Source: Escherichia coli (GTDB lineage Bacteria; Pseudomonadota; Gammaproteobacteria; Enterobacterales; Enterobacteriaceae). Taken from it: a DNA stretch of 49,174 nt. The notes under the pieces were generated by a model. The model was not told where the DNA came from, searched no databases, and worked only from the letters and a program-made list of their open reading frames with translations. The stretch lies in assembly GCF_003334255.1 (NCBI RefSeq), contig NZ_QOWU01000040.1. One strand, 5' to 3'. The position numbers and the translations under genes were made by a program. Below are positions 2,757-49,174 of the stretch, piece by piece (position 1 is the first letter of the stretch; each line of letters opens with the position of its first letter).

Positions 2757-4087
2757 CACGCCAGTTTCAGATCCCGGGTCATGTTTTCCACGTTGTTTTC
2801 GTGGATCACCACGTTGTCTTCGATACGAATGCCGCCGAACGGTTTCAGTGCTTCAATTTTCTGCCAGTTGAAGTGCTTGCTGAACTGCCCTTCACGCCAC
2901 GGTGCCAGTAGCGATTCGATGAAGTAGATACCCGGTTCGATGGTTAACACCATGCCCGGCTGGAGAATACGGGTGCAGCGCAGGTACGGATATTTTGCCG
3001 GTGCCGCGAGGTGCGTACCGCTATCATCCTGCATAAAACCAGCGACGTCATGCACCTGCAGGCCCAGCGGATGGCCGATACCATGCGGCATAAACGGCCC
3101 GGTAAGATCGTTTTCGACCATCGCTTCTTCACTCATATCGGTGATGATTTGATGTTTACGCAGCAGTTTGGCGATGCGCTGATGGAACTGGATGTGGTAA
3201 TCCACATAGCTGACGCCTGCTTTCATGGTGGCGATCAGCGCCAGTTGTTCATCATTAACGTCCTTCACCAGCTGCGCGTAGTCGTTGTCACTTTTTGCCG
3301 ACCAGGTACGGGTCAGGTCAGCCGCATAGCCGTTATATTCTGCCCCGGCATCCAGCAGGAAGCTGCGCATCTCTTCCGGTGCCTGATGGTCCAGTTTGGT
3401 GTAATGCAGTACCGCAGCGTGTTCGTTAAGCGCCACAATGTTGCTGTAAGGTACGTCGGTATCACGATGACCGGTCGCGGTCAGATAGGCAATGTTGATA
3501 TCGAACTCGCTCATGCCAGAACGGAACGCTTCTTCTGCCGCGCGGTGACCGTTGACCGCCATTTTCTGCGCTTCACGCATACAGGCCAGTTCGTACTCAG
3601 TTTTGAAGGAGCGATAGTAATGCAGGTAGTCGATAACCCCTTTCGGGTTGATGTTGCTGGCCTCAATACCCAGTTGCAGCGCACGTTCCGGCACCGGACC
3701 GATATAACCGATATTGCCGCGCGCAGCAGGCAGCAGGCTACCAATGCCATCGGCTTTCGGCAGCGCGATCACTTCCACATCTTCAGTCCAGAAAGAGGTC
3801 GGCAGCGGTTCGACGTTGTGCCAGTAATCAACCGGCAGATAGAACCACAGTTTCGGCTTGTTCACGCCATCCACCAGCAACCAGCAGTTTGGCACCTGAG
3901 TTACCGGCACCCACGCTTTGAATTGCGGGTTCACTTTAAACGGATAGGGATGATCGTCGAGAAAAACATTGAACAGCTCGCCGGAGTGAATAAGTAACGC
4001 ATCCAGCTTGAAGCGCGCCAGCGCATCGCGAGTCCGTTCTTGTAAGGTAGCTATATGATTTTTATAGAGCGAGGCCAGTGATTCCAT
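2756..4087 (-). CDS. pepQ: Xaa-Pro dipeptidase (prolidase)
   Basis: 443-aa ORF recognised as PepQ (M24 metallopeptidase). Confidence 0.95.
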
Positions 4088-6466: not shown

Positions 6467-7639
<1,173 letters not shown>

Positions 7640-7645
7640 CCACTT

Positions 7646-7829
<184 letters not shown>

Positions 7830-7890
7830 TGGTTTGCCAGATACGTCATAGATCTAAATGCCACTGAATAACAGTTTAGTTGCCGTTCTT

Positions 7891-13283: not shown

Positions 13284-15526
<2,243 letters not shown>

Positions 15527-47267: not shown

Positions 47268-48464
47268 ATGCTAAAAGTGTTATTGCTCTTTGTGTTGCTG
47301 ATTGCGGGGATCGTGGTTGGCCCGATGATTGCCGGCCATCAGGGTTATGTGCTGATCCAGACCGACAACTACAATATCGAAACCAGCGTCACGGGCCTGG
47401 CGATCATATTGATTCTGGCGATGGTAGTGCTGTTTGCCATTGAGTGGCTACTGCGGCGGATCTTCCGCACTGGCGCGCACACCCGTGGGTGGTTTGTCGG
47501 ACGTAAGCGTCGCCGTGCACGTAAGCAGACCGAACAGGCGCTGCTGAAACTGGCGGAAGGCGATTATCAGCAAGTTGAAAAGCTGATGGCGAAAAATGCC
47601 GATCACGCGGAACAACCGGTGGTGAACTATCTACTGGCTGCCGAAGCCGCGCAACAACGTGGTGATGAAGCACGCGCCAACCAACATCTGGAACGCGCAG
47701 CGGAGCTGGCCGGCAACGACACCATTCCGGTAGAAATCACCCGCGTACGTCTGCAACTGGCCCGTAATGAAAACCATGCTGCACGCCACGGCGTGGATAA
47801 GCTGCTGGAAGTTACGCCACGCCATCCGGAAGTATTACGTCTGGCGGAACAGGCGTATATCCGCACAGGTGCATGGAGTTCGCTGCTGGATATTATCCCA
47901 TCAATGGCGAAAGCCCATGTTGGTGATGAAGAACATCGTGCAATGCTGGAACAACAGGCATGGATTGGCCTGATGGATCAGGCGCGTGCCGATAACGGTA
48001 GCGAAGGTTTGCGTAACTGGTGGAAAAACCAAAGCCGGAAAACGCGTCATCAGGTAGCGTTGCAGGTGGCAATGGCGGAACATCTTATTGAATGTGACGA
48101 TCATGATACTGCCCAGCAAATTATCATCGATGGCCTGAAACGCCAGTACGACGATCGCCTACTGCTGCCGATTCCTCGACTGAAAACAAACAATCCGGAA
48201 CAGCTGGAAAAAGTGCTGCGCCAGCAAATCAAAAACGTCGGCGATCGCCCGCTGTTGTGGAGCACACTGGGCCAGTCACTGATGAAGCACGGAGAATGGC
48301 AGGAAGCATCGCTCGCCTTCCGCGCAGCGCTGAAACAACGTCCGGACGCCTACGATTACGCATGGCTTGCCGACGCGCTGGACAGACTGCACAAGCCGGA
48401 AGAAGCTGCAGCGATGCGTCGCGACGGTTTGATGTTAACGTTGCAGAATAACCCGCCACAGTAG
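47268..48464 (+). CDS. hemY: HemY membrane protein (TPR-like; function in heme metabolism unclear)
   Basis: 398-aa ORF starting MLKVLLLFVLLIAGIVVGPMIAGHQGYVLIQTDNYNIE; 2 bp after hemX. Confidence 0.9.
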   Translation: MLKVLLLFVLLIAGIVVGPMIAGHQGYVLIQTDNYNIETSVTGLAIILILAMVVLFAIEWLLRRIFRTGAHTRGWFVGRKRRRARKQTEQALLKLAEGDYQQVEKLMAKNADHAEQPVVNYLLAAEAAQQRGDEARANQHLERAAELAGNDTIPVEITRVRLQLARNENHAARHGVDKLLEVTPRHPEVLRLAEQAYIRTGAWSSLLDIIPSMAKAHVGDEEHRAMLEQQAWIGLMDQARADNGSEGLRNWWKNQSRKTRHQVALQVAMAEHLIECDDHDTAQQIIIDGLKRQYDDRLLLPIPRLKTNNPEQLEKVLRQQIKNVGDRPLLWSTLGQSLMKHGEWQEASLAFRAALKQRPDAYDYAWLADALDRLHKPEEAAAMRRDGLMLTLQNNPPQ

Positions 48465-48501
48465 TTCCTTCTCACCCGGAGGCAAGCACCTCCGGGGCCT
48501 T

Positions 48502-48718
48502 CCTGATATATAAAAAAACGCCTGCTCTTATTACGGAGCAGGCGTTAAAACAGGTCTGTATGACAACAAGTGGGTGCTTCACTCAACGTTGTGTCCATGG
48601 TGTCTGATGAGGCATAAGCGACATCTGTCAGTGGACGATAAGCACCGTAAACGGCTCTGCGTCATTCCGGAGTTTATGAGGCACTAAGGCGAACATAAGA
48701 GATGGAATGAGCATCTAC
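48502..48718 (-). ncRNA. glmZ: GlmZ small regulatory RNA (activator of glmS translation; formerly SraJ/RyiA)
   Basis: Minus strand reads GTAGATGCTCATTCCATCTCTTATGTTCGCC ... GACCTGTTTTAACGCCTGCTCCGTAATAAGAGCAGGCGTTTTTTT, which I recognise as GlmZ, including its intrinsic terminator (10-bp stem plus T7). No ORF on this strand. The span includes the whole T-run, so the 3' end is approximate. Confidence 0.85.
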
Positions 48719-49174
48719 TCGTTTATTATGCCACAGAGAATCGGGAAATAACATCCCTTAACACTTGTTATGAGATAATTCTGTAATCCTCTTTGCTTCC
48801 TGAGTAATAACTTCCTGAGTGAATATTTAACCTGAGCTTGATCCTACACATACTTATTATGAATGATAAAATTCATTCAATTAATAACACATATATTAAT
48901 TGCCGTTAAAACTAAAAACAGCATCAATAATCAACGCGATATAATAAACCTGCCTTACATATCAACTGCGCCAGAGGTAGGATTGAAAACGCTCTCCTGA
49001 TTTTCCAATTCATTTTCTGGATAAATAAATAATTTATTTTTGTCACTATTATTTATGTAATCATCCTGTCAGGGAGAGGGATCTCAATTATCAATGCGGT
49101 AATGACTCCAACTTATTGATAGTGTTTTATGTTCAGATAATGCCCGATGACTTTGTCATGCAGCTCCACCGATT

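Follow-up and report, generated by a model that had tools for sequence, protein, structure and literature searches.

The 207 nucleotides at positions 48512..48718 on the minus strand of the window, i.e. of the whole 49,174 nt stretch of DNA that was analysed, are almost certainly the known glmZ gene of E. coli, which here should work by its published K-12 mechanism. Neither the RNA nor its promoter shows any difference from K-12. Finding glmZ in E. coli DNA adds nothing new to its biology; the practical value lies in annotation. GlmZ is a textbook example of control through regulated decay of a small RNA: RNase E is brought in by an adaptor protein, against which a decoy RNA works, and the circuit governs the first committed step in making amino sugars for the cell envelope.

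An earlier note on this DNA had recognised a GlmZ small RNA on the minus strand just downstream of hemY. We searched the window in its full length for Rfam 15 families, using gathering thresholds, and obtained three hits in all. The RF00083 model (GlmZ_SraJ) matched 48512..48718 of the minus strand with 218.4 bits, far above its gathering score of 60, with an E-value of 2.6e-56 and coverage of the model from end to end (positions 1-214 of 214, cmscan). An overlapping lower-scoring match from the same Rfam clan was dropped, GlmZ being the best scorer of the clan. All 207 of 207 nt are the same as in glmZ of E. coli K-12 MG1655, and the flanks are identical from -60 to +209. The sole mismatch in the compared stretch, an A at 48509 where K-12 has a G, lies 3 nt beyond the 3' end of the RNA. 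This complete match in the same hemY-aslA context supports the identification independently of the covariance model. A chance resemblance can be dismissed in view of the E-value from Rfam, the K-12 identity and the fold energies given below.

The window is collinear (inverted) with MG1655 3986053..4035247 at ~99.96% identity, so that the neighbours of glmZ are hemY, hemX, hemD, hemC, cyaA etc. hemY occupies 47268..48464 on the plus strand (398-aa ORF, collinear with MG1655 hemY); it is the last gene of hemCDXY and is convergent with glmZ. Being on the minus strand, glmZ is opposite in direction to the plus-strand ORFs of hemX and hemY, and the gene order is that of MG1655. The linkage of glmZ to hemCDXY has been described before (PMC3045617). 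Of 5426 complete E. coli genomes, 5425 contain a match of ≥95% identity to a 296-nt query around glmZ. Both strands of 48200..49174 were read, and it holds that no complete ORF of 60 aa or more follows hemY: the longest have 36, 37, 45 and 40 aa. The one exception is an IS1 transposase ORF that continues beyond the end of the window, with just its last 19 codons inside.

Counting from the transcription start, nucleotide n of GlmZ corresponds to window coordinate 48719 - n. The primary transcript starts at G48718 (+1) and reaches its 3' end in the U-run at 48512-48518, which gives the 207 nt reported for primary GlmZ (PMC4152352). The span of 48502-48718 proposed earlier is thus exact at its 5' end, while its 3' end lies 10 nt past the U-run, the real end being at ~48512. 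Stem-loop 1 (nt 1-65, 48654..48718) was taken from the Rfam structure together with the minimum free energy (MFE) fold, and stem-loop 2 (nt 73-146, 48573..48646) from the Rfam structure. Between stem-loops 2 and 3 lies a single-stranded region of 26 nt (nt 147-172, 48547..48572), equal to the published length (PMC4737144). Stem-loop 3 (nt 173-202, 48517..48546) is an intrinsic terminator, with its U-run continuing to nt 207 (48512). All these elements are on the minus strand. Three stem-loops, the last of them an intrinsic terminator that ends in oligo(U), are what is expected for GlmZ. The fold was more stable than that of shuffled sequences (z = -3.3).

The description of the terminator as perfect was borne out by a terminator scan: the 11 pairs of the stem at 48546..48517 contain no mismatch, 7 of them are G-C, and the loop of 8 nt and the stem are followed by TTTTTATATA. 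Stem-loop 3 can be exchanged for other terminators (PMC9841335, PMC4737144). As also stated earlier, the same hairpin is not followed by a T-run on the plus strand. The sequence past it there is AAAACAGG (...GGCGTTAAAACAGG), which would provide no U-run, and the terminator scan found no terminator on the plus strand.

This leads to the 3' end of hemY, for which a second hairpin near 48474..48496 had been suggested as the probable terminator. The hairpin exists. It is GC-rich, reads CCCGGAGG-CAAGCA-CCTCCGGG on the plus strand at 48475..48496, lies 10 nt after the hemY stop and is a candidate for the hemY 3'-end hairpin. For its suggested role the evidence is the conserved position of such hairpins in relatives. 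The hairpin has 8 pairs, 7 of them G-C, and a folding energy of -15.8 kcal/mol when folded alone; the plus-strand segment 48440..48570 folds with z = -4.65, and the predicted fold holds both hairpins. Downstream follows GCCTTCCTG with 3 T in 8 nt, i.e. the GC-rich hairpin of an intrinsic terminator is present and the U-run is absent. It was not called as a terminator by the terminator scan, and since the U-run is lacking we did not class it among the canonical intrinsic terminators. We also searched the literature for experiments that map the 3' end of hemY, with no relevant result.

Among relatives, a strong hairpin was found within ~30 nt of the hemY stop in 69 of 74 cases, in ~8 of which it was the GlmZ terminator itself. 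Since relatives keep strong hairpins near the hemY stop, we consider the hemY 3'-end hairpin a conserved feature. Many relatives carry a hairpin with an unrelated stem and a clear T-run, e.g. AAGGAGGCC-AGAC-GGCCTCCTTTTTTT in Enterobacter. E. albertii retains the E. coli hairpin by means of altered pairs (CCCGGAGAU/AUCUCCGGG); 5 T in 8 nt follow the hairpin there and also in a second E. coli genome. By a strict automatic count a T-run follows the hairpin in 16 of the 69. This number is too low and for qualitative use only, as T's were drawn into A-U pairs of the stem when the hairpins were picked. The T-runs of the relatives indicate an ancestry of the hemY hairpin as an intrinsic terminator.

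Instead of terminating transcription, the hairpin at 48475..48496 may protect the 3' end of the hemY mRNA against exonucleases, with release brought about by Rho or by the GlmZ terminator hairpin read in reverse. The GCCTTCCTG tail and the failed terminator scan favour this reading. It is also in line with two findings from relatives: in ~8 species the spacer between hemY and GlmZ measures just 9-19 nt and the GlmZ terminator is the sole hairpin after hemY, and Salmonella and Citrobacter carry a palindrome without T-run at the position of the hemY hairpin. The T-runs that follow the own hairpin of hemY even by the strict count, and the 5 T in 8 nt of E. albertii and the second E. coli genome, count against it. 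Overall we regard protection of the mRNA as a possibility to be taken seriously, though doubtful. That the hairpin acts as the hemY terminator is plausible, and the hemY transcript most likely ends at or just after it, which leaves 15 nt to the 3' end of GlmZ.

The spacers themselves vary widely across Enterobacterales. From the hemY stop to the GlmZ 3' end we counted 9 to ~540 nt (loci L005-L124), in three arrangements: an own hairpin with T-run (Enterobacter, Lelliottia and others), a palindrome (Salmonella, Citrobacter), or no own hairpin. In this last arrangement only the GlmZ terminator is found (e.g. loci L016, L018, L022, L087 and L105). The palindrome after hemY in Salmonella and Citrobacter is presumably REP-like.

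Because the hemY-side hairpin has no U-run and a mere 15 nt separate the 3' ends of the two convergent genes, some hemY transcripts could read through into glmZ. Such an RNA would be antisense to the GlmZ terminator and to the glmS-pairing and cleavage region, and it would constitute a second, RapZ-independent control on GlmZ. Read-through of this kind is hypothetical, as is read-in from the IS1 element described below with extended GlmZ 5' ends, and we consider both improbable.

In K-12 the 26-nt single-stranded region is where RNase E cleaves, and it also contains the glmS-pairing residues (PMC4737144). Since glmS is located outside the window (as are glmY, rapZ, hfq and rne), the K-12 glmS leader was used for predicting the duplex. 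When the 26-nt region was paired with glmS -60..+3, nt 149-170 (48549..48570, minus strand) formed the predicted base-pairing site, in a duplex with glmS -41..-21 at -19.2 kcal/mol. Only 16 of 2000 shuffled sequences paired with the glmS leader as well as the region itself, and the best-pairing 26-nt windows of GlmZ began at nt 145-152, overlapping the single-stranded region. Two other RNAduplex set-ups were discarded: full-length GlmZ against a 206-nt glmS region yielded an unrealistic molecule-wide duplex, and a 37-nt GlmZ query yielded a duplex with a long internal loop.

RNase E and RapZ would cut at approximately nt 151/152 (48568/48567, minus strand), because the published processed product measures ~151 nt and the cut falls within the single-stranded region. 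This processed form does not have the pairing site and is inactive (PMC4152352). A central processing site at 48560..48600 had been proposed from the sequence. The approximate cut does fall in this range, at its low edge and not in its centre; most of the range (48573..48600) is the 3' arm of stem-loop 2, i.e. the recognition element for RapZ and RNase E rather than the cut site. The transcript sizes anticipated in the same note, roughly 200 and 150 nt, agree with the published primary and processed species (PMC4152352), and the partners that it named, glmS, GlmY and RapZ, agree with the literature (PMC4737144, PMC9841335).

From the identity to K-12 we infer transcription of an RNA of ~207 nt, its cleavage by RNase E/RapZ to ~151 nt and an Hfq-aided activation of glmS. 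Published work provides the binding partners: RapZ binds stem-loops 1 and 2, the latter making the RNA an RNase E substrate (PMC9841335, PMC4737144), and stem-loop 1 is bound by one dimer of the RapZ C-terminal domain (PMC9841335). Hfq is bound by a determinant in the single-stranded region together with the oligo(U) tail (PMC4737144), and its binding protects the single-stranded region (PMC4737144, PMC4152352). GlmY sequesters RapZ (PMC4737144, PMC4152352).

The steps of the mechanism are taken from work on the identical K-12 sequence (PMC4152352, PMC4737144, PMC9841335, PMC3045617, PMC2377431). Transcription from a constitutive sigma-70 promoter would start at G48718 on the minus strand and stop at the hairpin and U-run 48546..48512, giving the 207-nt RNA. 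When glucosamine-6-phosphate is scarce, full-length GlmZ would be bound by Hfq through the U-tail and the single-stranded region. The segment 48547..48572 would then pair with the glmS leader ~21-41 nt upstream of the start codon, which is expected to open the glmS hairpin that hides the ribosome-binding site and to allow more GlmS synthesis. When the metabolite is plentiful, a RapZ tetramer on stem-loops 1 and 2 would present the single-stranded region to RNase E. The cut at ~nt 151/152 (48568/48567) would remove the pairing site and leave the inactive ~151-nt species. The homologous decoy GlmY, by sequestering RapZ, would set the balance between full-length and processed GlmZ.

GlmY itself (SroF/Tke1, clan CL00011) has to be weighed as an identity for the element, which would then only sequester RapZ and not pair with glmS. 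The two RNAs are ~63% identical with the same overall fold (PMC2377431), they share the RapZ-bound stem-loops 1 and 2 and a terminator stem-loop (PMC4737144, PMC2377431), and the Rfam scan did contain the lower-scoring overlapping match of GlmZ's clan. GlmZ, however, outscored the other clan members, and the sequence is identical to glmZ of K-12. The locus is hemY-aslA and not the place of GlmY upstream of qseE/glrK. Furthermore, the single-stranded region of GlmY comprises 12 nt without glmS complementarity (PMC4737144), whereas here it comprises 26 nt and is complementary to glmS. The element shows none of the traits of GlmY; clan score, K-12 identity and glmS pairing already refute this reading, to which we assign next to no probability. 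The element is the same as GlmZ of K-12 (SraJ/RyiA, RF00083) in its 207 nt, its promoter region and its terminator, in the fold with three stem-loops, in the 26 single-stranded nt for pairing and cleavage, and in its place beside hemY.

The GlmZ structure was compared among Enterobacterales homologues. A pattern of 18 nt, 16 of them specified, was derived from the 3' arm of stem-loop 2 and run against species-representative genomes, where it yielded 120 loci. A GlmZ 5' motif and a downstream T-run were found in 92 of these, 91 of them distinct in sequence, and an alignment was made of 80 homologues and the window copy (81 Enterobacterales sequences). Under the Rfam consensus pairs 88.8% of the cells were paired. 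In the upper part of stem-loop 1 the consensus register had to be rejected: its helix 3 was only 27% paired, and the pair 14-53 was unpaired in 67 of the 81 sequences. When the register was moved by one position to that of the MFE fold, pairing reached 100% and 98.5%, and two more compensatory pairs appeared. The shifted register fits both the sequence and the covariation, while the upper part of the Rfam consensus fits poorly.

With the shifted register, 96.0% of the cells were paired, compared to 35-41% when the partners were slid by 1-3 columns, and 15 pairs were changed on both sides among the 81 sequences. None of 500 column shuffles reached the observed percentage of paired cells, number of both-side changes or covariation score. 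The compensatory changes cluster in the three stem-loops, in stem-loop 2 at its base. In the terminator stem 8 of 11 pairs were changed on both sides; the basal helix of stem-loop 2 was paired in 100% of the 81 sequences, with a change from U-A to C-G in 28; and stem-loop 1 showed a change from U-A to C-G in 14 sequences, the pairs 13-53 and 14-52 changing on both sides. In GlmZ of the Yersinia group (loci L015, L031, L065, L102, L109, L117 and L122) the tip of stem-loop 1 contains an insertion of ~15 nt, which corresponds to columns 33-47 of alignment A1; E. coli and most other genera lack it.

Two short ORFs are present, of 36 aa at 48472..48582 (minus strand) and of 37 aa at 48574..48687 (plus strand), but that a small protein from either is made instead of or beside the RNA has a vanishingly small likelihood and is excluded by covariation of the RNA type and frame-breaking indels: the minus-strand ORF begins within the RNA, crosses the terminator hairpin and passes the transcript 3' end, conservation resides in paired helices with compensatory changes and not in codons, indels not divisible by three are frequent among homologues, and the function of GlmZ as an RNA is experimentally established (PMC4152352, PMC4737144, PMC9841335).

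Upstream of the start site the minus strand reads ...GGATGTTATTTCCCGATTCTCTGTGGCATAATAAACGA followed by the G at +1. In K-12 the segment -40..+32 of glmZ is sufficient for expression (PMC3045617). The 60 nt upstream of +1, and hence this segment, are identical here. Read by hand, the hexamers of a putative sigma-70 promoter occupy 48725..48754 on the minus strand. The probable -10 element is CATAAT (48730..48725), preceded by TG at -15/-14 (48733, 48732), such that an extended -10 of TGgCATAAT would result. As a weak -35 element we propose ATGTTA (48754..48749), with 3 matches to TTGACA and a spacer of 18 nt; this is our own reading and not that of a figure in the paper. In K-12, expression drops drastically when the three -35 bases that agree with the consensus are mutated, and mutation of the -10 element abolishes it (PMC3045617). 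The promoter did not appear in the output of a sigma-70 consensus scan, because the -35 element is weak.

Expression of glmZ in E. coli is independent of GlrR and sigma-54 (PMC3045617). By its sequence the promoter in the window appears to be of this E. coli type, i.e. a single sigma-70 promoter with neither GlrR sites nor a sigma-54 promoter. GlmZ of Salmonella and Yersinia has the same RNA architecture and the same hemCDXY linkage, but the glmZ promoters of these genera depend wholly or partly on sigma-54/GlrR and contain three GlrR sites and IHF sites. In contrast, E. coli glmZ, including the window copy, would be transcribed from a single constitutive sigma-70 promoter (PMC3045617).

The environment upstream of the promoter differs from K-12, where the spacer continues uninterrupted to aslA. 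The last part of the window, 49098..49174, is the right end of an IS1. This element interrupts the spacer between glmZ and aslA and lies upstream of both, at 379 bp from the glmZ +1 and at 46 bp from the aslA start in its MG1655 placement. The minus strand of the IS1 end encodes ...SVELHDKVIGHYLNIKHYQ followed by the stop, which we take to be the C-terminus of InsB; database matches to this sequence are annotated as IS1 family transposase. The transposase gene is directed towards glmZ. According to the K-12 deletion analysis (PMC3045617), the IS1 should not affect the glmZ promoter. None of the 5426 complete E. coli genomes has the exact junction in one piece at 100%. In 13 of them there is a place that covers 80% or more of the 80-nt query for the junction, and among the matches listed most were annotated as IS1. 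In strain EP91B an IS1 lies 9 bp from the site of the window in the same orientation, and aslA is marked there as a pseudogene.

In the K-12 reference (NC_000913.3) glmZ is annotated at 3986432-3986603 (2933-3104 of our locus L001), i.e. with 172 nt ending exactly before the terminator hairpin, compared to 207 nt in the literature (PMC4152352). Among the matches listed, no feature was annotated under glmZ in the PGAP-annotated E. coli genomes (e.g. L002). We take the scan to work properly because it recovered glmZ with correct boundaries where annotation has 172 of 207 nt or none.

Two further Rfam elements were seen in the window, both on the minus strand. The small RNA EsrE (Erse, RF02757) was matched over its full length at 14921..15172 with 319.5 bits, overlapping the 3' end of ubiJ as in the MG1655 annotation. 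naRNA4 was matched at 7698..7775 within a REP array between fre and fadA. This array (7639-7830) comprises ~99 bp more than in MG1655, which indicates one extra REP repeat unit, since the BLAST segments overlap there.
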